NCBI GenBank assembly: GCA_021802705.1
Contig: JAJZRL010000005.1
Location: 1-61,938 of the forward strand
Source: a bacterium
GTDB lineage: Bacteria; Patescibacteriota; Minisyncoccia; Phycocordibacterales; Phycocordibacteraceae
Direction: 5' to 3'
DNA length: 61,938 nucleotides
Below the pieces are notes generated by a model that worked only from the letters and a program-made list of their open reading frames with translations, did no database searches and had not been told where the DNA came from. The position numbers and the translations under genes were made by a program. Each line of letters begins with the position of its first letter. The stretch's first letter is position 1. This document shows positions 6,212 to 61,938 of this stretch, piece after piece.

Positions 6212-6275
6212 ATATATAGGTATAGCTTATAGTGTGGAGCGGAAAATGCCTAGCGAAACCCCATATTCCTCCTGC

Positions 6276-45491: not shown

Positions 45492-45563
45492 GAGGAAAGT
45501 ATAGCCGAACGCAAGCTCCCCCGTGAGACGAGGGTGGGTATAACTTACTGGGCGGGAGAACGG

Positions 45564-45636
45564 TGCGCGCGCTAGGGATCGAACCTAGGACCTTCCGCGT
45601 ATCAGGCGGGCGCTCTACCAGCTGAGCTACGCGCGC
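45564..45636 (-). tRNA. tRNA-Ile (anticodon GAU)
   Basis: The minus strand reads GCGCGCG-TA-GCTCAGCTGGTAGAGC-G-CCCGC-CTGATAC-GCGGA-AGGTC-CTAGG-TTCGATC-CCTAG-CGCGCGC-A. All arms fold, with one C-A mismatch in the anticodon stem. CCA is not fully encoded. Confidence 0.85.
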
Positions 45637-46003
45637 AAACAGCGCAAGAAACGGAAACTGAAAAATCACCTGCCGGCTGTGGCCGGTTTTTTGATTCTAC
45701 CAGAAGCCGTTTAAACTGTCGCTCTTTGTCGGAAAGCGGCAGGCGCCCTAAGGCGCCTGCCGCTTTCCGTGATTCTGAGAAAGAAGTCTGCTCTCTTTTG
45801 TTCCGCCTATCCTGTTCCATTCGAGAGCTCATATGCGGCTCTCGAACGCCACCGGGTTACGTTATCCGGCTTCCGGGTACCGTTTAAAGACGAGTACCAT
45901 CTCTTCATTCCCCGAAGGAAACGATCGACGTGATACTCCTTTCGGGAGTATCGGTTCCAATTGGATATGTTCCACGAACAGCTTCCGCTACCCGTGCCTT
46001 GTT

Positions 46004-46771
46004 CTGTTTTCCCCTCGTATCGCTACGAGGCATGGACTATATCATCATCCGCTCCTCAAACAGCGCTCGCTTCATCGGATGCCATGACCCGACAACGCGT
46101 GCGAAGTCTGAATGCGATGCGGTGCTTATGAAACAACGCCAGTAATTTGGATCGACACGACGACTCGGATTATGGAGTGCGCCGGTTTTGATACCAAGTG
46201 ACTGAAGGATTTCTTTAAGCATCTGCATCTTCTCTCTGTCTTTTTGAACAAGCTGTATATAGAAGAGGGCATCCTGACTGTGCGGTATACCTCCTTCTGC
46301 ATCGAAGAAACCTCGGATATAAGCCGCTTTTTCTTCACTTGTTTTGAGAGACAGAGGATTGAATCGGAAATCGAGAAATGCTGCGGTAGTTTCAAGATCG
46401 TATACATCACGTTTACCTTCTTGATACATCCACGACCGGTGGCCGAGATGCATGAGAAGATTTTTAAGAATCGTTAGCCATTCGGTTCCTTTTTGAGAGA
46501 ATCGAACACGATTCTTGCGACGATACGCATCATGAAGCGCGCCTTGCAGATATGCTTTGATTTCAGATTTCGATTTGAACGGCGATCGGCGTGTAGTCTC
46601 TGAGGGGTCAATTACGACTTCCCTGCTGATTTTCTGCACCCGACGCATTGTCACGGGCATAATGTTTCCATTATACCGCGTAGCGCGGGATTCTCAGGTC
46701 TTCCAGCATATAGCCAATTTTATTTTTCGAGGGATTACTCCCAAGCGTCGCAACACCGGCAGTCTGCCGGT
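46004..46771 (-). mobile_element. 16S insertion 3 (768 nt, group I-like) between AAGUCGU and AACAAGG
   Basis: The exon ends in U and the intron ends in G. Intron GCGAC about 20 nt in can pair with exon GUCGU with a terminal U-G. It contains a LAGLIDADG ORF. Confidence 0.7.
46037..46660 (-). CDS. LAGLIDADG homing endonuclease (two-motif type, degenerate first motif)
   Basis: 207 aa. IRGFFDAEGG (LAGLIDADG-like) and an upstream YLQGALHDAY. It lies wholly inside insertion 3. Confidence 0.75.
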   Translation of the reverse strand: MPVTMRRVQKISREVVIDPSETTRRSPFKSKSEIKAYLQGALHDAYRRKNRVRFSQKGTEWLTILKNLLMHLGHRSWMYQEGKRDVYDLETTAAFLDFRFNPLSLKTSEEKAAYIRGFFDAEGGIPHSQDALFYIQLVQKDREKMQMLKEILQSLGIKTGALHNPSRRVDPNYWRCFISTASHSDFARVVGSWHPMKRALFEERMMI

Positions 46772-46858
46772 ACGACTTAGTCCTTGTCACTGAATTTGCC
46801 GTAGTCCTGCGCGAGGCAGACCTTCGGGCACCCCCAGCTCCCTTGACTTGACGGGCGG

Positions 46859-47694
46859 ATTGCAATAGGCCGAGACGCCTTTGCGTTCCCACGTAGCGAA
46901 CGGATTTCCCGTACTACGCGAGTCCGACAGTTTTTTGATTCATGCGCAACTTGAGTTCACGAATTTCTCCAACCCCTTCTGTAGTCAAATGCTTCCGCTC
47001 TTTTACAAGCTTGGCGATCTTACAGAAGATATCGAAGCTCGCGCTCTTCGTTGCGCTGCGCAACGGATGTTTCCTGAAGAACGGGATAACAATATCTTGT
47101 ATATCCCGTTCTGCACTTACGGTATAGCGATAACACTGACAATGGTTTGCGCGTTGTTCTTTTTGGAAGTACACCGCACCACACCCTATCGTGTTCCGTA
47201 CTTTCTCAAGCAAGTCTTTATCACGTTCTTGCATTTTCAGATGAAAATGCAATTGAACGCGATGTCCTGCTCGATAACGGTCAGAAGCTCCCATGTTCAC
47301 ATAGAAACATCCTTCGCCGTCCGTAAGTCCGACAACATATTCGTTGCTAACCGTCGGAAGTGTCCTTTCCATACGTCCAGTATAACTTGACGTATGGTAC
47401 TACGACACAGCTGACTTCTCATAGGTGTTCATATCTCGATCCCTATGAGATCTCCTTGGGTCATTATCCATTCCGTTCCTTGCATCCGCTCAATGCGATT
47501 GTGAAGCGCTTCCCCATTACTCACCAGAATGGGTCGCGCATACGCTCTGTATCTCTACAGGAGGGCTGCTTTTTGCTACTAGATCTCTCCGCCGACAACC
47601 TCGCGGCCTGCCGACTGTTCGTTCGCTACGCGTGCTTTCGCACGGGTCCGATTTTAACGGACTGGATTGAATAACTACCAAGCACATTTCTGAA
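46859..47694 (-). mobile_element. 16S insertion 2 (836 nt) within the decoding-centre sequence GUACUCA/CCGCCCGUC
   Basis: The flanks reconstitute UGUACUCACCGCCCGUCA. The boundaries do not obey the simple U / terminal-G rule. It contains a LAGLIDADG ORF. Confidence 0.6.
46914..47372 (-). CDS. LAGLIDADG homing endonuclease (single-motif type)
   Basis: 152 aa. YVVGLTDGEGCFYV motif. It lies inside insertion 2. Confidence 0.85.
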   Translation of the reverse strand: MERTLPTVSNEYVVGLTDGEGCFYVNMGASDRYRAGHRVQLHFHLKMQERDKDLLEKVRNTIGCGAVYFQKEQRANHCQCYRYTVSAERDIQDIVIPFFRKHPLRSATKSASFDIFCKIAKLVKERKHLTTEGVGEIRELKLRMNQKTVGLA

Positions 47695-48274
47695 TGAGTA
47701 CAAGACTCGAGAACGTATTCACCCCGGTTTGGCTGACCCGGGATTACTAGCGATTCCGGCTTCATGAGGTCGGTTGCAGACCTCAATCCGTACTGGGGTC
47801 GGTTTTATAGGGATTGGCTCCGCCTTGCGGCATTGCAACCCGTTGTACCGACCATTGTATTATGCGTGCAGCCCAAGGTATCAGAGGGACATGCTGATCT
47901 GGCGTCATCCCCACCTTCCTCTCCCGTGAGGGAGCAGTCTCGCCTGGCCATATAGGCAACAGGCAACGGGGGTTGCGTTCGTTACCCCACTGAAGGGAAC
48001 AGTTCAAACCACGAACTGACGACGACCATGCATCACCTGCCCAACACCCTCGAAGGCTCCTCACCTTTCGGCGAGGATGCAGTTGGGTTTCTAACCTTGG
48101 TAAGGTTCTTCGTTTGTCGACGAATTAAGCCGCATAATCCACCGCTTGTGCGAGTCCCCGTCTATTCCTTTGAGTTTTAATCTTGCGATCGTACTACCCA
48201 GGCGGCTCGCTTACCGCGTTAGCTTAGCCTCACAGAGGGTCGATACTCCGTAAAGCGAGCGAGCAACGTTGAGG

Positions 48275-48308
<34 letters not shown>

Positions 48309-48735
48309 ACCCTGGCTTTCGTGTGTGAGCGTCAGGAACGTACCAGTGCACTGCCTTCGCCTTTGGTGTTCCCCATGATATCAACGGATTTCACCCCTCC
48401 ACCATGAGTTCCGTGCACCTCTTACGCCCTCGAGCCATACCGTTTCCTCCGCTAGCCGCAGGTTAAGCCCACGGATTTCACAAAAGACTAATATGGCCGC
48501 CTCGACACCCTTTACGCCCAATGATTCCGGGTAATGCTTGGGGCCTCTGTATTACCGCTCCTGCTGGCACAGAGTTAGGAGCCCCTTATTCATCGGGTAC
48601 CGTCAATAAACTTCGTCCCCGATAAAAGATGTTTACGTACCGAAGCACTTCATCCATCACGCGGCGTCGCTCCGTCAGGCTTTCGCCCATTGCGGAATAT
48701 TCTCGTCTGCAGCCTCCCGTAGGAGTATGGGCCGT

Positions 48736-49436
48736 CGTTTATTCCATAATTTCTTATGGCACAGACTATACTTTCACCCTCGTTCGCGCGAGGGGCTTGC
48801 GTCTTACAGAATCCGAAGATTCTGTCTTCATCCCGGTTTTCTCCGGGATTCCAGTCGTTACGGGGTCAAACACTCGTATTTCGCGCTTTCCTCCCGTAGA
48901 GGAGTTTAGGCTGCGAATTTTCTGCACTAATGACAGAATACGAATATACGCTCCTTCAGACAGCGTGCTTGGTTTGTGTTTCTCATTTACGCTCATCCTT
49001 TTCAATACTTCAAGAGCCAGGTTTGCCTGGTCTTTCTTTATGAGAAGGAATGGCACGAGACGCGCGAGCACCGCTTTCACTTGGCTTCGTTCTTGGACAA
49101 CCAACTCTGCGAGATTTTTGCGCTTATCGGTTCGGATGACCCCGAAACTTCCAAGCGCTTCTCGCACCAATCTCAATTTACCTATATGCCGCGCATGTTG
49201 GGTGAAATTCACCTTGATGCGCACACGATACGGGAACCGTTTGCTGTGATAACGCTCAAGCGTTGCCACAACAGAACCGTCTCCGTCCAAAAATCCAGCC
49301 AAATATTCGTCTGATGGATAGTGTCGACTTCCCACGGTATTGCCTTTGATGGGTACCATTATACACCCATCAGTCAGGTTCCACCGTTATGAGCAAGATT
49401 TATCATTGGGGATTACTCCCCAAGGAGACAACTTTT
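48736..49436 (-). mobile_element. 16S insertion 1 (701 nt, group I-like) between ACUGAGAU and ACGGCCCAUACUCC
   Basis: The exon ends in U and the intron ends in G. Intron GUCUC (nt 8-12) pairs with exon GAGAU with a terminal U-G. An S-element-like AAAGUAUAGUCUGUGC lies near the 3' end. It contains a LAGLIDADG ORF. Confidence 0.75.
48766..49359 (-). CDS. LAGLIDADG homing endonuclease (single-motif type)
   Basis: 197 aa. YLAGFLDGDGSV motif. It lies inside insertion 1. Confidence 0.85.
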   Translation of the reverse strand: MVPIKGNTVGSRHYPSDEYLAGFLDGDGSVVATLERYHSKRFPYRVRIKVNFTQHARHIGKLRLVREALGSFGVIRTDKRKNLAELVVQERSQVKAVLARLVPFLLIKKDQANLALEVLKRMSVNEKHKPSTLSEGAYIRILSLVQKIRSLNSSTGGKREIRVFDPVTTGIPEKTGMKTESSDSVRRKPLARTRVKV

Positions 49437-49846
49437 ATCTCAGTCCCATCGGTGGGGATCAGGCTCTCACCCCCCCTAAGCGTCGTAGCCTTGGTAAGCC
49501 GTTACCTTACCAACTAGCTGATACTGCGCAGGCAACTCCCGAAGCGAAAAACCTTTACCCTTGCGGGACTATCGGGGATTACCCCGTCTTTCGACGAGCT
49601 ATACCCGACTTCGGGGGATCTACCTACGTGTTACTACCTCGTTTGCCGGTTGTCCTTGCGGACCCCCTTGACTTGCATGACTTATCCACGCCGCCAGCAT
49701 TCACCCTGAGCTAGGATCAAACTCTCATTAAGAATAGGCGGAACAAAAGAATTCATACTTCATTATTTCTCATTCACGTACTTGCACGTATTCGATTTTC
49801 AAAGGTCAAAAGAAACCCCGTCCCGTTACAGCGGGACAGTACCGCT

Positions 49847-49875
49847 ATGCTACAGGAACGGCTTAAAAGCGTCAA
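49847..49875 (-). promoter_or_regulatory. Candidate sigma70-type promoter for the 16S gene
   Basis: The minus strand reads TTGACG-17 nt-TAGCAT, about 115 nt upstream of the 16S 5' end. Confidence 0.3.
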
Positions 49876-49904
49876 GAAGGATTCCGTGTTGGTAGAGCAG
49901 AATC

Positions 49905-51155
49905 TTAGAACTCGTTGAATTTCGGCAGCACGTTCACCGTGGTTGTTGCGGAATACTTGAAGGCCCCGCTGTTGAGCGCCTCGCATTGTATGGAATAGAC
50001 GGATTGCGAAAGTATCGTCTGGGTAACGCTCCCGTTCGTTTGAGTGCTGATAACCCCCAGGGGGCCAGTGACTGTGCAGTTTTTCGTAAGCGAGGAACTC
50101 CAGGTGATGGTTGAGGAATCGCCAGCGTTTACACGGTCGGGGTTCGCGCTGATGGAGACGGTAGGCTGGTTCACTACCACGGTCGTCGAATCGGAGCCGG
50201 GGCCGCCCGTGCCGGTGCAGGTGATGGTATAAGAAGAGGTCGTAATAGGAGAGACCGTGGCTGAGCCGGAAGTCGCATTCCCCGTGTTGAATCCCTTGCT
50301 GGTGCAGAAAGTTGCATTTGTCGCCTTCCATGAGAGATCCGAGGACTGCCCGATGTTAATCGTGCTTGGGCTAGCCGTAAGGGTTACGGTGGCAGCAGGC
50401 GGAGGACATACGTTTCCCGTTGTCGAACAGCAATAGAGCGGTTGAGCGGTATCCGGCGAGAGGCTTCCCGTTGCCGAATCGTAATTGAGAGCGGGATAAT
50501 TACATGAACCGGTCGGTCCTGAAGACGTACAACCCTGGCCGTAGCAGCCGACGCCGCACCACGGGTTGCCGACTGTATAGCTTCCGCCGCCCGTAGGAGT
50601 GCCGGAGAAGCTGATGGCACCGACATCCCGCGAACCCCAGGCATAGCCGGCAAAGCAGTTGTTCGCATACGTTACGCCGTACGATGAGCCGTTTTGAGCG
50701 GTTCCGGAGAGATGAATCCAGCCGTCCCAGCCGCCGGAGTGCGGATCAAGAGCGCCGCTACAAGCGCTTTTATTTGAAAATGCGGCGCACGAACGCGCCC
50801 AACCGGTAAGCTGGCCATTGCTCACCTGCGCGGTACAGGAACCGGAGGGGCAGCCGGTAAGGTCGCTTTGATTGAACGTAATCCCGCCGAAGTAAGGAGA
50901 CCATGCGTAGCCGGAGAGAACGCCAGAGGTCGTGTCGATTGATACGCCGTACGGCGAACCGTTTTGAGCGATTCCGGAGAAGTGAATCCACCCCATGAGA
51001 TCAGTCCAGGCATAGCCCTGTATCGGGAGAGAGGAGGCGGGAGTCGCCGCGCGGACCGGCTCTCCCCCGCTAAAGAAGAGCGACCCTGCGGTAAAGAGCA
51101 ACCCCGCTCCGGCGAAGAGCATCGATGCTACGAAAACGCGACGGGAGGTGTTCAT
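49905..51155 (-). CDS. Secreted Cys-rich repeat protein (GYAW...GWIHF repeats plus two Ig-like C-terminal domains)
   Basis: Start at MNTSRRVFVASMLFAGAGLLF (the Arg-rich upstream extension of the track ORF overlaps the preceding gene). Repeats GYAWTDLMGWIHFSG, GYAWSPYFGGITF, GWDGWIHLSG and GYAWGSRDVGAISF. Confidence 0.7.
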   Translation of the reverse strand: MNTSRRVFVASMLFAGAGLLFTAGSLFFSGGEPVRAATPASSLPIQGYAWTDLMGWIHFSGIAQNGSPYGVSIDTTSGVLSGYAWSPYFGGITFNQSDLTGCPSGSCTAQVSNGQLTGWARSCAAFSNKSACSGALDPHSGGWDGWIHLSGTAQNGSSYGVTYANNCFAGYAWGSRDVGAISFSGTPTGGGSYTVGNPWCGVGCYGQGCTSSGPTGSCNYPALNYDSATGSLSPDTAQPLYCCSTTGNVCPPPAATVTLTASPSTINIGQSSDLSWKATNATFCTSKGFNTGNATSGSATVSPITTSSYTITCTGTGGPGSDSTTVVVNQPTVSISANPDRVNAGDSSTITWSSSLTKNCTVTGPLGVISTQTNGSVTQTILSQSVYSIQCEALNSGAFKYSATTTVNVLPKFNEF

Positions 51156-51156
51156 G

Positions 51157-51480
51157 TTATTTCTGATGAGGCGTAAGCGAGTCAAGTACTTCCTGTGACG
51201 GCGGCGTAGACACTTTCGTCTTCGGCGTGAGAGACTTGAGTACCTGAGGCGAAGGCGGCGTCGTGGACGCATTCTTCGGGGTGAGGGATTCGAGGATGCT
51301 TTCGAGCGTCGGCGGCGTCGTGCTCGACGTCGAAGAGAGGCTTTCCTTCCAAAGAGCGAACCGCCATCCGGCAAGCGAAACTATCGCAACGAAAAGCGCG
51401 AGCGCAAGGATTACCCAAAGCGGACGGTTTCCGTCAATACTTTGTCTGAACGGCATGCTCTGGTATGTCTCGTCGCTCAT
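51157..51480 (-). CDS. Single-pass membrane protein with three tandem TPP-x-LxSLTP repeats
   Basis: 107 aa. TM LWVILALALFVAIVSLAGW. Then TPPTLESILESLTPKNAS, TPPSPQVLKSLTPKTKVS and TPPSQEVLDSLTPHQK. The stop is 1 nt from the next ATG. Confidence 0.55.
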   Translation of the reverse strand: MSDETYQSMPFRQSIDGNRPLWVILALALFVAIVSLAGWRFALWKESLSSTSSTTPPTLESILESLTPKNASTTPPSPQVLKSLTPKTKVSTPPSQEVLDSLTPHQK

Positions 51481-51490
51481 ACACCGCTTC

Positions 51491-52246
51491 CTAACTCGAT
51501 GAGAGGTTAGCTAGAACGCAAGCGGCCCACGTGGCATTATTGGAACTGTTTCCATTATAGTGATACCACCTTAACGTGTATCCCGTATCGCACCAGAAAT
51601 TATTACCGGTCCAGTTGTTGTCCCAATGAAGAACCCCGACCGGCGACAATCCGCCAAGCCCGCCTGCTCCCGGCACAATACAATTATTACCATTCACGTC
51701 GCAGTATGCGGCAGCTCCCACCTTGCCAGGAACAGGAGGAGATGAAGTGTTCCAGTCAGCATAGACATCAAGGGCAGTGGCGGGAGTGGTGGTGTTGATG
51801 CCCACATTGCCGGAGGGGCCGATGATGAAACGCGTCACGCCCGAACCCACCGTCTGATCTTGAATAGCGAAGGAGCCTGCAGGGTTGAGCGAGCCGGTAC
51901 CATCAGAAATGAGATTCCATGCGTGGCCGCCGGCGGTCGAGTTGTAGATCTGAAGGAACGTATCGGTTGCAGGAGAATCGATAGTGAGAGGGTGGGAGGG
52001 AGTGGTGGTACCGATGCCCACGTTGCCGTACTGGACGAGGAGGCCGTTTGTGGCTCCTCCGGTGTTGAGGAGGAGGCCGGCTGACTTCGATTGGGAGTTC
52101 GCGCTCACGTCAAGCGGAGCGTCGGCGTTGTTCTGGGGAGGAGGAGAGGAGGGTTCGGTGAAGGACTGGGCGAGAGCGTTCGCTCCAAAGGAGACGGCTG
52201 CGGTGATGACGACCGCGAAAGTTGGGAGGAGATATCGATTTTTCAT
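51491..52246 (-). CDS. Secreted fibre-module protein related to the 1..3535 gene
   Basis: 251 aa. Signal MKNRYLLPTFAVVITAAVSFGANALA. NVGIGTTTPSHPLTI and NVGINTTTPATALDVY modules. Cys-containing C-terminal domain. Confidence 0.7.
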   Translation of the reverse strand: MKNRYLLPTFAVVITAAVSFGANALAQSFTEPSSPPPQNNADAPLDVSANSQSKSAGLLLNTGGATNGLLVQYGNVGIGTTTPSHPLTIDSPATDTFLQIYNSTAGGHAWNLISDGTGSLNPAGSFAIQDQTVGSGVTRFIIGPSGNVGINTTTPATALDVYADWNTSSPPVPGKVGAAAYCDVNGNNCIVPGAGGLGGLSPVGVLHWDNNWTGNNFWCDTGYTLRWYHYNGNSSNNATWAACVLANLSSS

Positions 52247-52351
52247 GGATTTTAGCGATTATGAGACTCTCTTAAAGAGTATTTGGTATCGGGAAATAAA
52301 GGAAGTACGGAGGTGTGGATAGCATTGAGAGATCTATTTCTTGCTTCGCTA

Positions 52352-52380
52352 TTGCAGATAGGGTTCGGAAGACCTATAGT
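52352..52380 (+). promoter_or_regulatory. Candidate promoter of the pyrH-like gene
   Basis: TTGCAG-17 nt-TATAGT, 23 nt upstream of ATG 52404. Confidence 0.4.
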
Positions 52381-52403
52381 GGGATGAGCCGTCACCCTTG
52401 CCT

Positions 52404-53096
52404 ATGAACGCACTTGAGCGGGAGCGTGTTGTTGTTTCTGTCGGAGGATCCTTGATCGTTCCTGACGACATCGATACCGCTTTCCTTGCTCGGTTCAAGG
52501 GGCTCATTCTTGAAAAGGTGCAGCGGGGGTTCACGTTCTCCATCATCGCCGGTGGCGGGAAAACCGCGAGGCGGTACCAAGAAGCGGTGAATGCCGTTAC
52601 CCCGCTCTCGCGCAACGATCTCGACTGGATCGGCATCCACTCGACGCGCCTGAACGCGCAGCTCTTGCGCAACATCTTCGTCGGCTATGCGCATCCGCAG
52701 GTCGTCAAGAATCCGACGATCGATATAGATGCCGACGAGCCAATCATCATCGCCGCCGGATGGCAGCCCGGCTGCTCGACCGACTACGATGCGGTCCTTA
52801 TGGCGAAAAATATCGGCGCGCGCAGGCTCGTAAACCTCTCGAATATCGACTACGTGTACGAGAGCGACCCGCTGAAGAATCCGGACGCGAAAAAAGTGGA
52901 ACGGATAGGCTGGTCCGGTTTCCGCGCCTTCATCCCGAAAGAGTGGCACCCCGGCCTCTCGTCCCCGTTCGATCCCATCGCCGCGAAAGAAGCCGAGTCG
53001 CTCGGACTCGAAGTCGCTATCATAAACGGCGCACGGCTCGAGGAGTTCGGCAAATACCTCGATGGCGAGCCGTTTGTGGGGACGATCATCTCTTAG
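52404..53096 (+). CDS. pyrH: Amino-acid-kinase-fold UMP kinase (archaeal/CPR type)
   Basis: VVVSVGGSLIVP and FSIIAGGGKTARRY motifs. About 230 aa. Confidence 0.7.
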   Translation: MNALERERVVVSVGGSLIVPDDIDTAFLARFKGLILEKVQRGFTFSIIAGGGKTARRYQEAVNAVTPLSRNDLDWIGIHSTRLNAQLLRNIFVGYAHPQVVKNPTIDIDADEPIIIAAGWQPGCSTDYDAVLMAKNIGARRLVNLSNIDYVYESDPLKNPDAKKVERIGWSGFRAFIPKEWHPGLSSPFDPIAAKEAESLGLEVAIINGARLEEFGKYLDGEPFVGTIIS

Positions 53097-53985
53097 CGAA
53101 CCAGCGGGCGATAGGGATGAGGAGCGGCGCGGAACGCGCGATCGAAGAGAACGTGCCGGCGATGACGCCGACGAGCATCACGAGCGCGAAGTCGCGCGTG
53201 GCCGGCGCGCCAAGGTAGATGAGCGCGCAAAGCGCGAGCGCGACCGTAAGCGCAGTGTTGATCGAGCGGGTCATCGTCTCGTCGATTGACTTCCCTATCG
53301 TCACATCGAACTCTTCCCGTATGCCCGCCTTCTCATTCTTCGCGAGGTGCTCGCGGATGCGATCGAAGATGACGATGACATCGTTCACGCAGTAGCCGAG
53401 CAGAGCGAGGAGCGCGACGACAAAGAGCGAGTCCACCTCGACGCCGGTAAAGTGAGCGAGCGCGGCATAGAAGCCGGCAGGAACGATGAGGTCTATCGCG
53501 AGCATGGCGACAACCGTGAGCCCGTACCCCCAGCCCGGGACCGGCCGCGATACCTTACGGAAAGCGAAAGCGATGAAGAGAACGATCGCCAGAACGACTC
53601 CGAAGAGCGCCCAGAGCGCTTTGTGCGCGAATTGGCTGCCGAGCGCCGGGCCGACCGACGTGAAGGCGAGCTCGGTGGTGGAGGCGCTTGAGGAAAGCGC
53701 GGCGAGTATCGCGTCATGCTCGGCCAGAGTCAGCGTGCGGGTCCGGATCGAGACGGCATTCGCACCTGATTCGCGCACCGAAATAGCGCCGAGAGGGACC
53801 CGCGCGACTTGCTCCCGGATCTCCGCGAGCGGCGGTCGTCCGTTTTGATACTGCACCTCTGTGAGCGATCCGCCGGTAAAGTCGATGCCGAGCGGCAAGC
53901 CCCATACGAGGATGGCGCCGAGCGCGGAAGCGAGCATGAGGCCGGTGAGCCAGAAGAAAAACTTGCGATGAGTGACGATGAACAT
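53086..53985 (-). CDS. secF: Protein translocase subunit SecF
   Basis: Start at MFIVTHRKFFFWLTG. GIDFTGGSL and VNDVIVIFDRIRE motifs. The track ORF carries a spurious N-terminal extension. Confidence 0.9.
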   Translation of the reverse strand: MFIVTHRKFFFWLTGLMLASALGAILVWGLPLGIDFTGGSLTEVQYQNGRPPLAEIREQVARVPLGAISVRESGANAVSIRTRTLTLAEHDAILAALSSSASTTELAFTSVGPALGSQFAHKALWALFGVVLAIVLFIAFAFRKVSRPVPGWGYGLTVVAMLAIDLIVPAGFYAALAHFTGVEVDSLFVVALLALLGYCVNDVIVIFDRIREHLAKNEKAGIREEFDVTIGKSIDETMTRSINTALTVALALCALIYLGAPATRDFALVMLVGVIAGTFSSIARSAPLLIPIARWFAKR

Positions 53986-53989
53986 GGCG

Positions 53990-55309
53990 TTACAGGTTAC
54001 GGAAACCGGAACCGAGCAGGAACTTCCATCCCTTCCCTCTTTCTTCCGGTACGAGAGCGAGGAGGTATATGCGCGAGACGGAAACCGCCGAGAGGAAGGA
54101 GGCGAGCACGCCGAGCATGAAGACGAGCGCGAAGCCTTGCACGATGCTCGTACCGAGCCAGAAGAGGATGACGCCCGAGATGAGCATCGTGAGATGGCCG
54201 TCGCGGATCGCCGTCCATGCGCGGGCGAAACCGACATGCACCGCCTCACGGGGAGTCTTGCCGTCTCGCAACTCTTCCTTGGTGCGCTCGAAGATAAGCA
54301 CGTTCGCGTCCACCGCCATGCCGACCGAGATGATAAGACCGGCGATACCCGACGCGGTGAGCGTGATCGGGATCACCTTGATGACGGCGAGCATGAAGGC
54401 GAGATATTCGGCAAGCGCAAGCGCGGCGACGACGCCCGGAAGGCGATACCAGCCGATCATGAAAAGCGCGACAAGCAGGAACCCGACGATACCGGCGACG
54501 ACGCCCGCCGCGATAGCCGCCGCGCCCAGGGTCGGCCCGACCGACGAGCTGCTCTCAAGCGTGATGGGAACGGGAAGCGCGCCGAAATTGAGATTGCGCA
54601 CGAGGTCGCGCGCTTCTGTCGCCGTGAATTGGCCGGTGATGGTCGCCTGCCCTCCCGGGATAGCTTCCTGGATGACCGGTTCTGATATCGGCTGTCCGTC
54701 GAGGAAAATGGCGAGCGTCCGTCCGACGTTTTCACTCGTTATCTTTTCGAAAAGCTTCGCACCCTCGCTATTGAAATTGAGGAGCACTTCCGGAGCGGCA
54801 AGACCAGCCGTCGCGCCGGAGCCGAACTGAAGCGAGGCGCTCGAGAGGAAGCGCCCGGTAAGGCCGGTCGGGACAAAGGTGACTTCGGTCGTCGTACCGA
54901 CGGTAGTCGTAGTCGCGAGCTTGAACTCGAGCGTCGGCGTTTTCCCGAGCGCCGCGACGGCAGCGTTGATGTCCGTCACTCCCGGCAGGTCGACGATGAG
55001 GCGGTCTTCGGTCGTTCCTGAAAGCGCATTCACTTCCTCGGTCTGGACAAGCGGTTCTGCGACGCCGAAAAGATTGACGCGGCGCTCGATGACGCCCTGC
55101 AGAGCCGAGAGCGCATCGGAGCGCTCGCTCGGAGGCGTTTGGCTCATGTCGGCCTTATAGACAAGCTCGGTACCGCCTGCAAGATCAAGCCCGAGCTTGA
55201 AGCGGTATGCGCTCGTCGGATCAGCCTGCGTCGTCCAGACGAAATAGGCAAGCAAAAGCCCCGCGATAAGGGCAATAAAGGCAAGCACTCGGAAACGAGT
55301 CATCGGCAT
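53990..55309 (-). CDS. secD: Protein translocase subunit SecD
   Basis: LGLDLAGGTELVY, IGPTLGAAAI and MAVDANVLIFERTKEE motifs. Start taken at the MPMTRF methionine. Confidence 0.9.
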   Translation of the reverse strand: MPMTRFRVLAFIALIAGLLLAYFVWTTQADPTSAYRFKLGLDLAGGTELVYKADMSQTPPSERSDALSALQGVIERRVNLFGVAEPLVQTEEVNALSGTTEDRLIVDLPGVTDINAAVAALGKTPTLEFKLATTTTVGTTTEVTFVPTGLTGRFLSSASLQFGSGATAGLAAPEVLLNFNSEGAKLFEKITSENVGRTLAIFLDGQPISEPVIQEAIPGGQATITGQFTATEARDLVRNLNFGALPVPITLESSSSVGPTLGAAAIAAGVVAGIVGFLLVALFMIGWYRLPGVVAALALAEYLAFMLAVIKVIPITLTASGIAGLIISVGMAVDANVLIFERTKEELRDGKTPREAVHVGFARAWTAIRDGHLTMLISGVILFWLGTSIVQGFALVFMLGVLASFLSAVSVSRIYLLALVPEERGKGWKFLLGSGFRNL

Positions 55310-55385
55310 GAGTATAGATGAAGTTCGGGAAAAACGAAACTCTTGCGCTCCACGCTTATCCGTTGCGATATAACCACAGCCCTGA

Positions 55386-56723
55386 TCAGGTTCCGGAAAA
55401 GGAGACAAGCGCCCGTATCGTCTTCAGCGCTATGGCGATATCAAGCCCGAACGAGCGGTGCTTGAGATAATAGAGGTCGAACGAGAGCTTCTTTTCCGTC
55501 CGTGCCACATCCGCTTGGCCGCGCGGCGCATCGTAGTCGTGGATCTGCGCCCACCCGGAGAGGCCGGGCGCGATAAGGTGCCGCAACCGATAGCCCGGGA
55601 TCTCGCGTTCATACACTTCCGCTATCTTCGGCAATTCCGGACGCGGACCGATGAACGAGAGGTCGCCGACCAGCACGTTCCAGAGCTGAGGCAATTCATC
55701 GATGCGTGTCTTCCGTAAAAACCGGCCGAGCGGGGTTACGCGATTCTTTTTCTGCAATTCCGGATCGCCATGATCGTTGAAAAGCATGGTGCGCAGCTTC
55801 ACGATACGGAAAACGCGCCCGTGCCGGCCGATGCGCGCATGCCGGATCCAAGGCGTTCCTCCCTCGAAAGAAAGAAGCGCGGAAGCGAGCGCGACAAACG
55901 GAGCGGCAATGAGCGCTCCGACGAGCGCGAGCGCGATGTCGAACGCGCGTTTAGCGATATCGTACGGCGTGCGGCGCTTTGAAAGAGAGTCGAACAGCTG
56001 GACGGCGACCAGGTGCGCTAAGGGTACCCGATCGAATATCTCCTCATACAGGGATGCGAACTCGAGAAACACGACGCCTCGCTCCATAAAGGCGTAAAGC
56101 CCGGACAGATTACGGATTACGACAGGATCGGACGTGTCGATGACGACGATAACGCCGCCGTTACCGGCTCTCGATGAAAGCGCGTCAAGGAGGGCCTGCT
56201 CGGAACAATCCTTCGTTTCCACATGCCCCGCGAACCGGATAAGGTAGCGGCCGTTGCCGTTCACTTCGTCATAGAGCTCGTCGACGGCGGCGCCGGACCC
56301 TATGAGGAGCGCCGGGACGCGCTTACCGTCTCGTATCTCGTAGTGCATGCGGTAGAAACGCCACGCGCTTTCGGCCGCTACCGATACGGCGAGATAGAGC
56401 ACGAGGATGGTCTTCGGCGCGATAGAGAGCGGAAGGACGAAGAAGAGCACCGCGGCTATCGTCACCGTCGCGGCCTGCGCCCAGAAGATACGCGTACCCA
56501 TGACGCGCCGGGTCGGCCGGGTCTGCTTCTCGTAAAGGCCGGCAACGTAGAAGATGAACAAGGATATGCCGAACATCGGCAAAAACGGCACCAGATTCAA
56601 CTCGAAATAACCGAGCGCTGGCACGGCCATAGCACGCAGGAAAAGCGCGGTCCATAAGGACATGACGAGTATGAGGAAGTCTCCCGTAAGGAGGAGCATC
56701 GTTTCGCGCCGGTCGAATGCCAT
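55386..56723 (-). CDS. Polyprenyl-phosphate glycosyl-1-phosphate transferase (WbaP/bacterial sugar transferase family)
   Basis: KRAFDIALALVGALIAAPF...RIVKLRTM...DELPQLWNVLVGDLSFIGPRP. Confidence 0.85.
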   Translation of the reverse strand: MAFDRRETMLLLTGDFLILVMSLWTALFLRAMAVPALGYFELNLVPFLPMFGISLFIFYVAGLYEKQTRPTRRVMGTRIFWAQAATVTIAAVLFFVLPLSIAPKTILVLYLAVSVAAESAWRFYRMHYEIRDGKRVPALLIGSGAAVDELYDEVNGNGRYLIRFAGHVETKDCSEQALLDALSSRAGNGGVIVVIDTSDPVVIRNLSGLYAFMERGVVFLEFASLYEEIFDRVPLAHLVAVQLFDSLSKRRTPYDIAKRAFDIALALVGALIAAPFVALASALLSFEGGTPWIRHARIGRHGRVFRIVKLRTMLFNDHGDPELQKKNRVTPLGRFLRKTRIDELPQLWNVLVGDLSFIGPRPELPKIAEVYEREIPGYRLRHLIAPGLSGWAQIHDYDAPRGQADVARTEKKLSFDLYYLKHRSFGLDIAIALKTIRALVSFSGT

Positions 56724-56769
56724 GATTACGGAATACTATACCGCGGAAATATGTTGTACAGTTGCGCGT

Positions 56770-57930
56770 ATGGACCACCTTGACGGCAAGAAAATACTTT
56801 TCGTCATAACGAAATCGAATTGGGGCGGCGCGCAGCAATACGTCTTCACGCTCGCCACCCGCTTCAAAGAAGCCGGCGCGGACGTCGTCGTTGCGCTCGG
56901 CGGAACGGGGAAAGAAGGGGCTTCGGCCGGCCTCCTCGACGAGCGCCTCAGGGAAGCCGGTATACGAACCGTCTTCCTGCCCGCCTTCGCGCGCGACATC
57001 GGCATAGGACGCGAGTTCTCCGCGTTCCTGCAATTACTGCGCGTGCTGCGCGACGAGAAGCCCGACATCCTCCACCTCAACAGCTCGAAAGCCGGCGGCC
57101 TCGGTGCGCTTGCCGGACGCATCCGGCACGTCCGCAGGATCGTATTCACGGCGCACGGCTTCGCCCATCGGGAACAGCGCCCGTTCCATGAGCGCGGCAT
57201 GATCTGGATCGCGTCGTGGCTCACGGCGATGCTCTCTCACTGCGTCATCGTCGTTTCGGAAGACGACCTGCGTCATGCGCCCGTATTCTTTTCGCGCAAG
57301 AACATGCACATTATCCGGAACGGGATAAGCCCCTTCCCTCTCATGCCGCGAAAGGAAGCGCGCGCGGCGCTTGCCGCGCGCGCTTCCGGCGTATCGTCCT
57401 ATCCTTTCTGGTTCCTCACGCTTTCCGAATTGCACCCGAACAAAGGATTGGATACGCTCATACGCGCTTTTACGGAAATCGCGAACAAGACCGCCGACAC
57501 CGCGCTTATTTTCGTGCACGACGGGCAATCGCGCGAAGAGCTCGAAGCGCTCGCTCGTGCACAGGGCCACGCGAATCGGATATTCTTCTGCGGCTTTTTC
57601 CCGGAGGCGCGGAAGCTGCTCTGCGCCGCCGACGTATTCGTGCTTCCTTCAAGAAAGGAAGGCCTCCCTTTCGCGATCCTTGAAGCCGGCATGGCGAGAG
57701 TACCGGTCGTCGCTGCCCGCGTCGGCGCCGTAGCGGAAGTGATCGAAGACGAGGCATCCGGACTCTTGTTCCCGAGCGGGAATGTGGAGCTCCTCACCGA
57801 AGCGCTCTTCCGCATGCGGAGCGACGAGGCGCTTCGCAGCCGCACGGGGAACGCGCTTCACGCCCGTGTCGTCCGCGACTTTTCCGAAGAAGCGATGCTT
57901 AAGAAAACCGCCGAGGCGTATCGCCGTTAG
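56770..57930 (+). CDS. Glycosyltransferase family 4
   Basis: Start at MDHLDGKKILFVITKSNWGGAQQYV. SRKEGLPFAILEAGMARVPVVAARVG motif. Confidence 0.8.
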   Translation: MDHLDGKKILFVITKSNWGGAQQYVFTLATRFKEAGADVVVALGGTGKEGASAGLLDERLREAGIRTVFLPAFARDIGIGREFSAFLQLLRVLRDEKPDILHLNSSKAGGLGALAGRIRHVRRIVFTAHGFAHREQRPFHERGMIWIASWLTAMLSHCVIVVSEDDLRHAPVFFSRKNMHIIRNGISPFPLMPRKEARAALAARASGVSSYPFWFLTLSELHPNKGLDTLIRAFTEIANKTADTALIFVHDGQSREELEALARAQGHANRIFFCGFFPEARKLLCAADVFVLPSRKEGLPFAILEAGMARVPVVAARVGAVAEVIEDEASGLLFPSGNVELLTEALFRMRSDEALRSRTGNALHARVVRDFSEEAMLKKTAEAYRR

Positions 57931-59057
57931 CCGCCGACGTATTCGTTCGCGATCATGTCGCGCGGCGTATGGCGGCTATAGCGCGCAAGCGACGTAACGA
58001 TACCGAGCGCGCCAAACTCAAGCACGAGATGCGAACCACCTGAGCTCATGAACGGTATCGTCGTTCCGGTTACCGGCAAAAGCCCGAGACTGATGCCGGC
58101 GTGTATCACGACGTGCGCCGCAAACAGCATGAGTACGCCGAGCGTGAAAAACGTATCGAAATTGGTCGACGCAGCGTGCGCAATCTGTATGAGCCGCGCG
58201 AAAAGAAGCGCGTACATGGCGAGAAGCAGAAAGACGCCGACAAATCCCCATTCTTCGGCGAACGCCGCAAAAATGAAGTCCGTCTGGTATTCGGGAAGGA
58301 AACGGAGCTTCGATTGCGTGCCATATCCGATGCCTTTCCCGAAAAGCTCGCCCGAGCCGACGGCAATCTTCGCCTGGTACGCGTTATATCCGGCACCATG
58401 GATGTTGGCAGCGGGGTTCACGAACGAGACGATCCGTTCGCGCTGATAGGGTTTCAGTCCTCCGAACCAGAGCGTCGTCGCCGTGATAAGCGCGATGAGG
58501 CCGAGGATGGCGAGATGCTTCTTCGAGATGCCGGAGACGAGCATCATGCCGAGCCAGATACTGCAAAAAATGATGGTGTTCCCCATGTCCGGTTCGACGA
58601 GGATGAGCAGGGCGAGAGCAAGCGTGTAGGCGCCGGAAATGATGATGTGCCGGAAATCGCCGATCTCGACGTGCCGGCGTGAAAGGTACTTCGCCAAAAG
58701 CGCGATGATCGCGAGTTTCGCGAGATCGGCCGGCTGGAATGATACGGGGCCGAGCGAGAACCACGCGCGCGCGCCAAGCACCGGATGCGCGATCACAAGC
58801 ACGAGCGCGAGCAGCACAAACGAGAGCGCATAGAGCGACATCACGAAGGGCGTACGGCGGATGAAACGCATGTCGAACGCGGAGAGCACGATATAGACGA
58901 CGGTCGAAAGGGCGAGCCAGACAAGCTGCCGCGGCGCGAGCGATGCTCCTTGCCCGAACGTGCTCATCGTGAGGATGCCGAGGAACGAAAGCGTGAGCGC
59001 CGGAAGAAGCAGCGTCCAGTCGAGAGGAAACGCACGGACAGGCGGCACGCCGGCCAT
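57927..59057 (-). CDS. SEDS-family peptidoglycan polymerase (FtsW/RodA)
   Basis: 376 aa, 10 TM. FQPADLAKLAII, PDMGNTIIF and EEWGFVGV motifs. Confidence 0.85.
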   Translation of the reverse strand: MAGVPPVRAFPLDWTLLLPALTLSFLGILTMSTFGQGASLAPRQLVWLALSTVVYIVLSAFDMRFIRRTPFVMSLYALSFVLLALVLVIAHPVLGARAWFSLGPVSFQPADLAKLAIIALLAKYLSRRHVEIGDFRHIIISGAYTLALALLILVEPDMGNTIIFCSIWLGMMLVSGISKKHLAILGLIALITATTLWFGGLKPYQRERIVSFVNPAANIHGAGYNAYQAKIAVGSGELFGKGIGYGTQSKLRFLPEYQTDFIFAAFAEEWGFVGVFLLLAMYALLFARLIQIAHAASTNFDTFFTLGVLMLFAAHVVIHAGISLGLLPVTGTTIPFMSSGGSHLVLEFGALGIVTSLARYSRHTPRDMIANEYVGG

Positions 59058-59058
59058 A

Positions 59059-59829
59059 TCAGGAGGGCGACGGGAGCGGTATGACCGGTATGACCTCTAC
59101 CGAAACGGGAGTCTCGGAAAACGGGCTGTTCCACGTGAAGATACCGGTTGCGCTGCCTTGCGATGGAATGACCGGCACGATTGTTTGCGATGCCGCGATG
59201 ATGTTTCCGCTTACGCCATGCACGAAGACGATCGCGCGCACGTTCGTCAGGTCGGCGACGCTCGGGTTCATGAAGACCGCTTCGACGCGCGGTGCAGACG
59301 GAGATCCGCCGATACTCGTCTTCGTCACGCTCGGTATGACGCGCGGATCGGTCATCATGGCAAACCACCGCGGAGACGATGACGCAATATCGAGAAAGGC
59401 GCTCGTGACCGGCTCTCCGTAGAAGACTCCCGGGACATAGACCGGCACGGTCGCACCCGGGGGCAGATCAAGAGTGCCCGGTACCTCCTTAAGGAGAGCC
59501 TCTCCGGCGCCATAGAGCATGATGGTGAAAGGGATATTCTGCGCTGCTGCGTCCGCATTCTTATTTTCAACCGACGCGATGACATCGGTGCGTCCGGAAC
59601 CGTCCGAAAGCGCCTGCGTAAACAAAACGGTCGGCGGCTGCTCTTGCGCGGTACAGAGATACGGACACGGGCCGCCGCAATCGATACCCGCCTCTCCCTG
59701 GTTTTGGATGTGGTCGGTGCATGACGGAGCACGATAGAAAAGCAAAGAAAACACGAAGGATGAAAACGCAATGACGATGAGGCCCAGTATGACCAGGATT
59801 ACGAGCCTCCTTCTTGCCGCCCATGACAT
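59059..59829 (-). CDS. Membrane-anchored protein with an N-terminal CxD-x9-GIDCGGPCPYLC motif
   Basis: Start at MSWAARRRLVILVILGLIVIAF (ATG 59829, with TATACT 6 nt upstream). The longer track ORF runs into the tRNA-like element. Confidence 0.55.
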   Translation of the reverse strand: MSWAARRRLVILVILGLIVIAFSSFVFSLLFYRAPSCTDHIQNQGEAGIDCGGPCPYLCTAQEQPPTVLFTQALSDGSGRTDVIASVENKNADAAAQNIPFTIMLYGAGEALLKEVPGTLDLPPGATVPVYVPGVFYGEPVTSAFLDIASSSPRWFAMMTDPRVIPSVTKTSIGGSPSAPRVEAVFMNPSVADLTNVRAIVFVHGVSGNIIAASQTIVPVIPSQGSATGIFTWNSPFSETPVSVEVIPVIPLPSPS

Positions 59830-59876
59830 GCCTGTAGTATACAGGTGCGCGGTCAGCCGTAAAAATGGACAGGGTG

Positions 59877-59907
59877 AAAAAAATTCCGCCGCGCAAACGC
59901 GGCGGAA
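59877..59907 (-). terminator. Rho-independent terminator ending the 23S-5S unit
   Basis: The minus strand has a ttccgccgcg-tttg-cgcggcggaa hairpin (10 bp) followed by seven U. Confidence 0.6.
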
Positions 59908-59913
59908 GAAAGG

Positions 59914-60031
59914 TCGGGGTGGTCGGATTCGAACCGACGTCCTCCGAGGACTTGTGCTTGCCAGAGATATCCAGTCCTGCAAGGCTACTCGGTGCTCTTC
60001 ATGTTTCCATGTCCGCTGAGCTACACCCACG
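59914..60031 (-). ncRNA. Aberrant 118-nt tRNA-like element downstream of the 5S
   Basis: Canonical T arm GTCGG-TTCGAAT-CCGAC. D-arm signature TAGCTCAGCGG...GAGC with a 13-nt hairpin insert. Acceptor CG(T)GGGTG/CACCCCG with one bulge. A 39-nt segment sits where a 7-nt anticodon loop should be, and no anticodon can be assigned. Confidence 0.4.
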
Positions 60032-60099
60032 AAACGAGTGAGTACATGTCTCCATACACTCACGACACTCACGAATGAGGAACGACTATTCGAGTGTTC

Positions 60100-60218
60100 G
60101 GTTCTGGCGGCTAGCTACTCTCCCCATCTGTAACGATGAGTACCATCGCCGCTAGGAGGCTTGACTGCCGAGTTCGGAATGAGATCGGGTATGACCCTCC
60201 CGCCAAACCACCAGAACC
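60100..60218 (-). rRNA. rrf: 5S rRNA
   Basis: The minus strand reads GGTTCTGGTGG...CCGAACTCGGCAGTCAAGC...GATGGTACT...GAGAGTAGCTAGCCGCCAGAACC. Length 119 nt. Confidence 0.9.
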
Positions 60219-60527
60219 GAACACTCGAAGTGTCGGGAACAAACGAATACGCATACGGTATGCAAACACTAAGTATGACTGTGCTACACAGAGTTCCGCA
60301 CGAGAGACTGGGCGTATTAGTACTCCTCGGCTCAACGCCTCACGACGCTTCCACCTAGAGCCTATCAACCTTGTCATCTTCAAGGGGCCTCATAACGATT
60401 CCTAATCTTGGAGCACGTTTCCCGCTTATATGCTTTCAGCGGTTATCGTCACCCGACATAGCTACTGAGCGGTGCCGCTGGCGCGACAGCTCATAGACCA
60501 GAGGTCAGTTCATCCCGGTCCTCTCGT

Positions 60528-60898
60528 CGCAATTAACTGGACAATTAACCAGTTAAAGATTCCCCTATTTCTAGGAGCGCAGACTATATCTTCATCCTTC
60601 TCCGCTGTCGAAGTTAGGATGATGGCATTTTACCCAATAGGAGCAGTCATTTTCTAAGAAATGATTCCTCAACCTATGAGTCTAGGTATCTTTCAACCTA
60701 AGTCGTTACGGGGTCAACCAAAACATTTCTATTTTTGGCGACTTCCCACGGTATTACCATAGTAGCATTCTAGTCCTCAAGCGAGTTTGATATCCACTGG
60801 ACCGTCGGATACCAACCTCTAAAACCAGACGCACCGTAGGCTTCACCGTTATAAGCCATGTTGTCATCAGAGATCTCTCTCTGAAGTAGCAATTTCTT
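60528..60898 (-). mobile_element. ORF-less group I-like intron (371 nt) inside the sarcin-ricin loop sequence of the 23S
   Basis: The flanks join to CCCUAGU|ACGAGAGGACCGG. The exon ends in U and pairs with intron GCUA (U-G). The intron ends in G. It contains AAGAUAUAGUC, an S-element-like motif. Confidence 0.75.
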
Positions 60899-60961
60899 AC
60901 TAGGGACAACCCTCCTCAAGAATCAACGCCTGTAGTAGATAGGAGACCAACCTGTCTCACG

Positions 60962-61219
60962 CATCTTGTTTTAGCCCCGATTACTCGGGGGATCGGACTG
61001 TAACACCATCGGTTCTCGATGACCAACATTCAGTCTCTCGGGGCAGCCCCGTTTTAAACGGGACATTCCCTCGGTATCGCCCTCTCGTACACAACGAGGT
61101 CGGGTTTTACCGATATCAGTTGATTTGTTTCGCGCGTATTCCTACGCACGACCGCCGTGAATTGTCTTTTCCTCGTGGGTTCAAACCGTGGAATGGCCGA
61201 TGACTGCATCAGCCGCTCT
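60962..61219 (-). mobile_element. ORF-less insertion (258 nt) in the 23S between GGGUUCAAACCGU and CGUGAGACAG
   Basis: The flanks join to a sequence colinear with E. coli GGGUUUAGAACGUCGUGAGACAG. The exon ends in U and the insertion ends in G. The insertion carries a 13-nt perfect complement of the upstream exon end. Confidence 0.6.
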
Positions 61220-61880: not shown

Positions 61881-61938
61881 CAAGTGTTCCTTAAACTTGG
61901 ATCATATCTTCTCCCATTACACACTGCGAGAGCGTGTC
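61881..61938 (-). mobile_element. Probable 3' end of a further 23S insertion that runs off the window
   Basis: The conserved AGCGUAAUUCCUUGUCGGG begins at 61880. The sequence upstream in RNA sense (61881-61938) does not match the expected CCUAAGGU context, and its last nucleotide is G. Confidence 0.4.

Follow-up and report, generated by a model that had tools for sequence, protein, structure and literature searches.

Two rRNA introns with identical 17-nt segments in a Phycocordibacteraceae genome: probable members of one IA-type group I family

Results

The stretch of DNA examined here, hereafter the window, is the 61,938-nucleotide (nt) contig JAJZRL010000005.1 (assembly GCA_021802705.1) of a bacterium of the Phycocordibacteraceae (Patescibacteriota). 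By Rfam, its minus strand carries 16S, 23S, and 5S ribosomal RNA (rRNA) genes and a tRNA, and the two introns treated here lie on that strand as well: one in the 16S rRNA, which holds an open reading frame (ORF) for a LAGLIDADG homing endonuclease, and an ORF-less one in the sarcin–ricin loop of the 23S rRNA (Table 1). A preliminary description of this DNA had noted two 17-mers common to both and took the pair as one intron lineage seen before and after invasion by an endonuclease gene. The explanation favored here, with a probability of about 0.85 for the whole of it, is that one large IA-type (IA3-like) family of self-splicing group I introns includes both inserts, each as a member of a lineage of its own site.

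Positions and structure of the introns

For mapping of the inserts, the minus strand was compared with the E. coli rrn operon, using strain SMBL (L001, NZ_CP061914.1, 16S at 5673-7191) as the ruler. The 16S of this ruler is 23 nt short of the standard 1542 nt, with a V3 region (about 400-490) unlike E. coli, and corrections of +23 for 16S positions past ~450 and of -2 for 23S positions were applied. The exons at the 16S site (...ACUGAGAU upstream and ACGGCCCAUACUCC downstream) join to the length of E. coli 16S 321-342, and the intron limits so obtained coincide exactly with those of the preliminary description.

Both introns follow an exon ending in U and themselves end in G (...AAACG/ACGG in the 16S and ...UUGCG/ACGAG in the 23S), and this terminal G (omega G) was present in all sampled same-site introns with a locatable 3' junction. 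In each, the exon end and an internal guide form P1 with a U-G pair (GAGAU/...GUCUC in the 16S and UAGU/...GCUA in the 23S). P1 was also found to covary with the exon: GCGAU goes with the guide GUCGC in L122-L125, and GAGAU with GUCUC in the window and L126, so the intron has kept pace with a substitution at position 325 of the host rRNA.

The conserved P3-P4-P5-P6-P7-P8-P9 core with Q, R, and S elements was found in both introns by Rfam alignments (of the 23S intron and of a 328-site homologue) and by RNAalifold pair counts on 47 introns of the two sites, from which the P6b loop had been removed. P2, P3, P4, P5, P8, and P9 were recovered with many compensatory changes, and changes of this kind also distinguish the window introns from each other in P2, P3, P8, and P9 (for P3, CUUGC/GCAAG in the 16S and AUGGC/GCCAU in the 23S). 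P7, which forms a pseudoknot with P3, was assigned by complementarity only (GACU/AGUC); no covariation is seen in it, R having been fixed by the search. A pairing of Q (AGUCG) with R (CGACU), which RNAalifold also gave on the loop-excised introns, was rejected as an excision artefact, P6a and P7 being preferred. Folding of UGGGAAGUCG-hairpin-UUGACCCCGUA gave P6 (GGG/CCC), an AA bulge, P6a (GUCG/UGAC), and P6b (CCAAAA/UUUUGG).

The 23S intron aligned with the full Rfam model RF00028 (40.6 bits, E 6e-9), whereby AAUACCGUGGGAAGUCG fell on Q, the 21-nt hairpin on the distal P6 stem-loop, UUGACCCCGUAACGACU on the P6 3' strand, J6/7, and R, and GAAGAUAUAGUCUG on S. An ORF-less 328-site homologue in L066, of the same layout, matched the model end to end (29.4 bits, E 1.4e-5). 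As in subgroup IA, two hairpins (P7.1 and P7.2) stand between P7 and P3' in both window introns, and the inserts at this point of the Rfam alignments are 69 nt in the 23S intron and 58 nt in L066.

The two introns are colinear throughout. The guide, P2, P3, and P4 occupy the same or nearly the same intron positions (Table 1), and past P4 there follow in both P5 (with an extension of differing length), Q, P6b, R, P7.1, P7.2, P3', P8, S, and P9. A full-length global alignment was dominated by the 455-nt ORF and uninformative, and loop-excised alignments were used instead. The 5' and 3' flanks outside the 17-mers gave local alignments with z ~6 over dinucleotide shuffles (0 of 500 shuffles equal). 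The colinear helices, compensatory changes, and flank similarity bear out the earlier claim that the two introns are of the same family; the shared 17-mers are embedded in similarity on both sides, in pairwise and structural alignment alike, and are not isolated.

Table 1. Coordinates of the two introns, their parts, and further rRNA inserts in the window
Feature	Coordinates	Strand	Nucleotides of intron	Remarks
16S intron 1, group I, 701 nt	48736-49436	-		after U aligned to E. coli 16S 328; exon mapping
Internal guide GUCUC (P1 3' strand)	49425-49429	-	8-12	pairs exon end GAGAU, U-G pair at splice site
P2 hairpin UUGGGGA-GUAA-UCCCCAA	49406-49423	-	14-31	RNAalifold on 47 introns, covarying pairs
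P3 5' strand CUUGC	49393-49397	-	40-44	partner GCAAG at 48796-48800; all 5 pairs supported, compensatory changes
P4 5' strand ACGGUG	49382-49387	-	50-55	pairs UACCGU within Q 17-mer; paired in 47/47 everywhere; Rfam alignment of 23S homologue
P5a hairpin	49347-49373	-		holds non-conserved ATG at 49359-49357
Q element AAUACCGUGGGAAGUCG	49325-49341	-		P4 3' strand, P6 GGG, AA bulge, P6a GUCG; in-frame GUG at 49335-49333
P6b	48870-49324	-		stem ACAC (49324-49321) / GUGU (48873-48870) around 455-nt insert
LAGLIDADG homing-endonuclease ORF	48766-49335 from GUG (189 amino acids) or to 49359 from ATG (197 amino acids)	-		single-domain, I-MsoI/I-CreI-like
R element UUGACCCCGUAACGACU	48853-48869	-		P6a' UGAC, P6' CCC, J6/7, P7 5' strand
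P7.1 and P7.2	48806-48849 (48830-48849; 48806-48825)	-		IA-type peripheral hairpins between P7 and P3'; homologous insertion in Rfam alignments
P8 hairpin	48777-48795	-		RNAalifold
S element GAAAGUAUAGUCUG	48762-48775	-		J8/7 and P7 3' strand, after P8
P9 hairpin CCAUAA-GAAA-UUAUGG	48744-48759	-		RNAalifold; then tail to terminal G at 48736
23S intron, group I, ORF-less, 371 nt	60528-60898	-		between U2656 and A2657; exons ...CCCUAGU / ACGAGAGGACC; exon mapping
Guide GCUA(C)	60886-60890	-	9-13	pairs exon UAGU
P2	60868-60883	-	16-31	5' half of intron (60756-60890)
P3 AUGGC	60855-60859	-	40-44	partner P3' GCCAU at 60622-60626
P4 ACGGUG	60844-60849	-	50-55	5' half of intron
P5 with long extension	60756-60841	-		
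Q element, identical to 16S copy	60739-60755	-		Rfam alignment
P6b hairpin CCAAAA-AUAGAAAUG-UUUUGG	60718-60738	-		fold -12.3 kcal/mol, z -3.0; aligned with L120, L079, L088, L058
R element, identical to 16S copy	60701-60717	-		Rfam alignment
P7.1 and P7.2	60683-60700; 60637-60677	-		
P8	60593-60621	-		
S element GAAGAUAUAGUCUG	60580-60593	-		after P8
23S intron after U2593, ORF-less, 258 nt	60962-61219	-		Q-like CCGAGGGAAUGUC (61062-61074), R-like CCCCGAGAGACUG, S-like ACAGUCC
16S group I intron after U1498	46004-46771	-		Rfam 43.2 bits; minimal P6 hairpin GGGAAGUCG-UAAU-UGACCCC
16S insert at ~position 1400	about 46859-47697	-		152-amino-acid LAGLIDADG_1 ORF (46914-47372); weak group II hits (RF01998, 26.7 bits)

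The shared segments and the intron family

The 17-mers AGTCGTTACGGGGTCAA (48853-48869 and 60701-60717) and CGACTTCCCACGGTATT (49325-49341 and 60739-60755) occur exactly where they had been reported and only twice each in the window, even with two mismatches allowed, as against a chance expectation of 0.01 copies for each; with this expectation and a flank z of ~6, sharing by chance was dismissed. Their spacings of 21 nt (60718-60738) in the 23S insert and 455 nt (48870-49324) in the 16S insert were reproduced from the coordinates, as were the 9-mer CAGACTATA at 48762-48770 and 60580-60588 and, for the shorter versions described in a third insertion at about 46600-46620, GGGGTCAATTACGACTTCCC at 46604-46623. 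The order of the 17-mers had been given for the plus strand; the positions hold, but because rRNA genes and introns alike are on the minus strand, the quoted strings give the reverse complement of the RNA and stand in reversed order, with the string of 49325 preceding that of 48853 within each intron. In RNA sense, AAUACCGUGGGAAGUCG is the Q element (P4 3' strand with P6/P6a) and UUGACCCCGUAACGACU the R element (P6a'/P6', J6/7, and P7). Pattern searches that allowed mismatches turned up no other close member of the family in the window. CAGACTATA (GAUAUAGUCUG in RNA sense) was seen a third time, again as an exact copy, at 23550-23558 of the plus strand, in what is apparently coding sequence without recognizable intron context; this copy is probably a chance match unrelated to the introns.

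For the family at large, one genome per species was scanned with the exact 16 nt of R, and at least 120 loci were obtained. Among the matches listed, the hosts were many Patescibacteria/candidate phyla radiation (CPR), Actinomycetota, Gammaproteobacteria, Omnitrophota, Eremiobacterota, archaea, and others. A Q-like 17-mer (at most 4 mismatches) lay upstream of R in 119 of 125 copies within these loci, about 50 of them with exactly the Q of the window. The Q-R spacing, again among the matches listed, was mainly 3-40 nt (hairpin) or about 450-610 nt (ORF), with a minority in between. Mapping of the flanking exons of the listed matches placed the family at 16S 328 and about 1080 and at 23S about 1917-1951, 2449, 2473, 2500, 2512, 2585-2593, and 2656, about nine rRNA sites together. 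The identical 17-mers, which had been offered as evidence of kinship between the two introns, are therefore the near-invariant Q/R core of a family in which they recur, the same or nearly so, in at least 120 species; they are no sign of close or within-genome kinship.

Identities were computed on splice-site-trimmed, loop-excised introns over columns occupied in both sequences. The two window introns share 58% over 230 aligned positions, whereas the window 2656-site intron shares 84, 82, 80, and 77% with the 2656-site introns of L079, L120, L088, and L058, respectively, and the window 328-site intron 77% with that of L061. In a ranking by identity, the window 16S intron comes 39th of 46 for its 23S counterpart, and the window 23S intron 21st of 46 for its 16S counterpart. 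Five more 328-site introns, mostly from Kaiserbacteria-like genomes, were obtained by searching with the endonuclease protein. Their proteins are 65-85% identical to that of the window; the 455-nt spacing recurs in four of these five, and the Q and R of L122, L124, and L125 are identical to those of the window. Because same-site introns are nearer than the other intron of the window, each window intron is taken to be a member of a site-specific lineage that would spread between genomes by homing, the link between the lineages being old. The proposal that one lineage colonized both 16S and 23S thus holds as past movement of the family between sites, but copying within this genome is not what 58% as against 77-84% identity suggests. 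The 23S 2656 site was considered as donor of the 328 intron and rejected, the 328 endonuclease being about equally like (28-41%) those at 23S ~2534, 2593, 2604, and 2656.

That the introns are unrelated and had short core segments homogenized by gene conversion within the genome is hardly credible. One genome does hold both introns, with two perfectly identical blocks; however, the same blocks are found in introns of about 50 other species, where no local conversion is needed, and colinear similarity and a common architecture extend across both introns. Divergent Q and R in the same-site introns of sister genomes, moreover, were not observed, L122, L124, and L125 being identical in these elements.

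The endonuclease gene in the P6b loop

The earlier observation that a LAGLIDADG ORF in the 16S intron occupies a loop that is a 21-nt hairpin in the 23S intron, and reads through both conserved strands, was reproduced: the translation of 48766-49359 on the minus strand runs ...NTVGSR...YLAGFLDGDGS...FDPVTTG... The statement that the gene replaces the hairpin has to be amended, as the P6b stem persists in the 16S intron (ACAC/GUGU) and the ORF is its loop. From there the frame runs on across R, P7.1, P7.2, P3', and P8 as far as the UAG in the S element, which is its stop codon.

Among 45 introns sampled at the 2656 site, 34 have an ORF-sized P6b loop, 7 a hairpin only, and 4 a short intermediate (about 100-185 nt); the 34 include three loops, of 255-376 nt, that are truncated as well. 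Within the clade of the window 23S intron, L079 and L119 have loops of 467 and 464 nt with a full-length gene, L088 has one of 454 nt with a frameshift and a stop after 71 codons, L120 (295 nt) and L058 (173 nt) bear internal deletions, and the window intron, L115, and L085 have minimal hairpins of ~22, 29, and 22 nt, respectively. In ORF-bearing copies, P6b consists of the first codons of the gene paired with its last (e.g. AUCAAAAAU...AUUUUUGGU), and the ends of the window 23S hairpin, CCAAAAAU...GUUUUGGU, match the ORF termini UCAAAAAU...AUUUUUGGU of L120. Because the window intron nests among intact, frameshifted, and deleted copies and its hairpin keeps the ORF ends, the gene was probably lost from the 23S intron by internal deletion, which left the stem and a 9-nt loop.

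The polarity of the preliminary description, in which the 23S intron is as yet uninvaded, the 16S intron already invaded, and the 17-mers a trace of recent spread between 16S and 23S in this genome, is accordingly probably the reverse of what took place. It does accommodate the occurrence of ORF-less and ORF-bearing forms at both sites and the junction U/ACG common to the two target sites, and the ORF-less 2656-site introns L035, L056, L085, and L099, whose GC-rich hairpins are unlike ORF termini, could be primitively ORF-less. It is nevertheless improbable in view of the low identity of the two introns and their mutual ranks, the identical 17-mers in dozens of unrelated genomes, and the place of the window 23S intron among copies with intact and decaying genes, whose ORF termini its stem matches.

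Reading frame and protein

All 28 intact genes at the 2656 site have a frame that begins with the GUG of Q (ACC GUG GGA AGU CG) and ends with the UAA of R (CCCCG UAA CG); in most of them a stop lies in frame 9 nt upstream, and the GUG is the sole start ahead of the LAGLIDADG helix. The loop of the window 16S intron is one nucleotide off this register, so that the frame passes R and ends at the UAG of S. The same 189-amino-acid frame is found in L122-L125, and with four related genomes sharing it a sequencing error can be set aside. Translation is likely to start at the GUG at 49335 inside Q rather than at the ATG at 49359, which is absent in L124 and L125 and absent or shifted among the relatives L122-L125; the GUG of Q is conserved.

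The 3' tail of the window 16S (45959-45972, minus strand) reads GAACAUAUCCAAUU where E. coli has GAUCACCUCCUUA, so that the anti-Shine-Dalgarno CCUCC appears degenerate (UAUCC). This may have a bearing on why no clear ribosome-binding site precedes the GUG of the endonuclease.

A second endonuclease type of about 190 amino acids, with an 'LLGDG' motif, is present at 23S 2500 and 2512. It uses the same GUG of Q, with the UGA of UUGACC or UAA as stop, and no similarity to the window endonuclease was detectable by BLASTP. We tentatively raise the possibility that the ribozyme core serves as a fixed expression frame, with the start at the GUG of Q (P4'/P6 junction), the stop at the UAA/UGA of R (P6a'/J6/7), and the end codons pairing as P6b, which would be used at several rRNA sites by both the I-CreI-like (~158 amino acids) and the 'LLGDG' (~190 amino acids) types. 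In that case P6 would serve repeatedly as a docking slot, an intron RNA could either be translated or fold as the ribozyme but not both at once, and in the 16S-328 lineage a homodimeric endonuclease would have been retargeted naturally between rRNA hairpins. The regular start and stop codons in the core, in two endonuclease types, are a mildly new point only.

The window endonuclease scored 31 bits against Pfam LAGLIDADG_1 (cut-off 23.1), and its motif YLAGFLDGDGS contains the acidic residue. Residues 10-147 matched PDB entries for I-MsoI (1.4e-14 for the native enzyme, 5.8e-31 for a tandem single-chain construct) and I-CreI (2.4e-12). No solved structures are closer to it than I-MsoI and I-CreI, which are single-domain enzymes that act as homodimers. 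The presumed 16S target, ATGGGAC-TGAGATAC-GGCCCAT with an N8 center (fragment ATGGGACTGAGATACGGCCCAT), encodes an rRNA hairpin and is palindromic at 6 of 7 positions, which is suggestive of a site suited to a homodimer. For I-ShaI, a CPR relative, both activity and dimer formation have been demonstrated (PMC11270868).

Other inserts and genes in the window

Three further inserts are given in Table 1. The ORF-less insert after 23S U2593, the classical I-CreI site, represents a third type of insert and was not reported by Rfam even at E up to 1. The intron after U1498 has a 207-amino-acid LAGLIDADG_3 ORF (46037-46660) that lies downstream of P7 and outside P6. The rRNA genes are unlinked, the minus-strand order over 45562-61938 being the 3' part of 23S, 5S (60102-60215), ~10 kb of ORFs, 16S (49727 to about 45950), and tRNA-Ile (45562-45636). 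A weak match to the transfer-messenger RNA model was seen just downstream of 5S on the same strand (59917-59977, 15.8 bits, E 0.007).

Discussion

By homology with known group I introns, each intron would fold in the transcribed pre-rRNA, with P1 formed by the exon end (final U) and the internal guide, and would be removed by a two-step, guanosine-initiated reaction that ends at the terminal G. The P7 strand of R would help to form the guanosine site; Q and R flank P6b, a peripheral hairpin. The gene in the 16S P6b loop is predicted to encode an I-CreI/I-MsoI-like homodimer that would cut intron-less 16S rDNA at ATGGGAC...GGCCCAT and so bring about homing. The 23S intron is of the 2656-site lineage, in which a homologous gene normally occupies the same loop, and the window copy most probably had it deleted. 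The two introns are taken as distant cousins, which points to past movement of the family between rRNA sites with no mutual copying in this genome.

Several points weigh against this account. The Rfam scores of 40.6 and 29.4 bits fall under the curated 50-bit gathering threshold of RF00028, and the ORF-bearing 16S intron gave no Rfam hit, because of its 455-nt loop; the general group I model is reported to under-score subtypes (PMC6125680). The IA3 label, which is better put as IA3-like, was drawn from P7.1/P7.2, the gene in P6, and family members at the published IA3 sites 23S 2500 and 2593. The loci were chosen by an exact R 16-mer, so that conservation of R is partly by construction, Q being unselected. 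Loss of the gene is suggested by a neighbor-joining tree from a MAFFT alignment, and N-terminal protein identities gave no resolution of gene monophyly in the 2656-site clade of the window intron. Upstream of the GUG of Q there is no strong Shine-Dalgarno sequence, only a weak AAGG/AAGA, and ORF-bearing introns equal ORF-less ones in this respect. Finally, the window ORF carries a 34-amino-acid tail encoded by the ribozyme core.

Of the rRNA introns in the window, at least five in number, two now have a clean anatomy, and it illustrates that short exact repeats between rRNA inserts can be merely group I core motifs. For annotation, models that allow for introns are needed for the 16S and 23S of this organism, the GUG at 49335 is probably the better start for the endonuclease ORF, and the 23S intron would be entered as a gene-less derivative.

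Homing endonuclease genes reportedly pass through a cycle of gain, decay, and loss, described by Goddard and Burt. For the introns themselves, reverse splicing and ectopic spread have been discussed for rDNA group I introns (Bhattacharya et al. 2005, as cited in PMC3984707), related rDNA introns at two sites being classical circumstantial evidence for spread by reverse splicing (Hausner et al. 2014, PMC3984707). ORFs that reach into core sequence are likewise a recognized group I arrangement (PMC3984707). The present case resembles the cycle in that intact, frameshifted, deleted, and lost copies stand in one clade and related introns at different rDNA sites; it differs in its hosts, which are bacteria, mainly CPR, and not fungal or protist nuclei or organelles.

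The Chlamydomonas Cr.LSU intron encodes I-CreI. IA3 introns at large-subunit (LSU) rRNA 2500 and 2593 carry the endonuclease gene as a large P6 insertion, and archaeal IA3.1 introns are found at 2593 (Nawrocki et al. 2018, PMC6125680). IA3 introns with a LAGLIDADG gene in P6, which occur in organellar, bacterial, and archaeal 23S rRNA genes, resemble the family described here in the P1-P9 core, in the additional hairpins that separate P7 from P3', and in a P6 loop that houses the gene. They also share its I-CreI/I-MsoI-like single-domain protein and its highly conserved rRNA sites, members of the family being present at 23S 2500 and 2593. Unlike them, the window introns occupy 16S 328 and 23S 2656, and the ORF is fused to the core, with GUG in Q and the stop in R (in the window, in S); their membership in IA3, set by architecture, is putative.

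Insertions in CPR rRNA genes are said to have been noted first by Brown and colleagues in 2015. The passages of Tsurumaki et al. (2024, J Bacteriol, PMC11270868) drawn on here describe CPR group I inserts at numerous positions of 16S and 23S, among them 23S 2657 with LAGLIDADG_1, as well as inserts at 16S 1498 and a group II-like class with a LAGLIDADG gene at 16S 1400. ORF-bearing and ORF-less versions are there near-identical outside the ORF, degenerate ORFs with large deletions occur, and related endonucleases at different sites are read as ectopic transposition. The Q/R anatomy, the kinship of the 328 and 2656 introns, and the start and stop codons in the core are not described in those passages of PMC11270868. 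All of the features that they list are present in the window, and the insert at 16S ~1400 matches the published group II-like class, in which LAGLIDADG takes the place of reverse transcriptase. The two introns are a further instance of what has been published on CPR rRNA introns, namely homing, ectopic spread, and decay of the gene, and as a pair they are ordinary, well-documented biology rather than a new kind of element.

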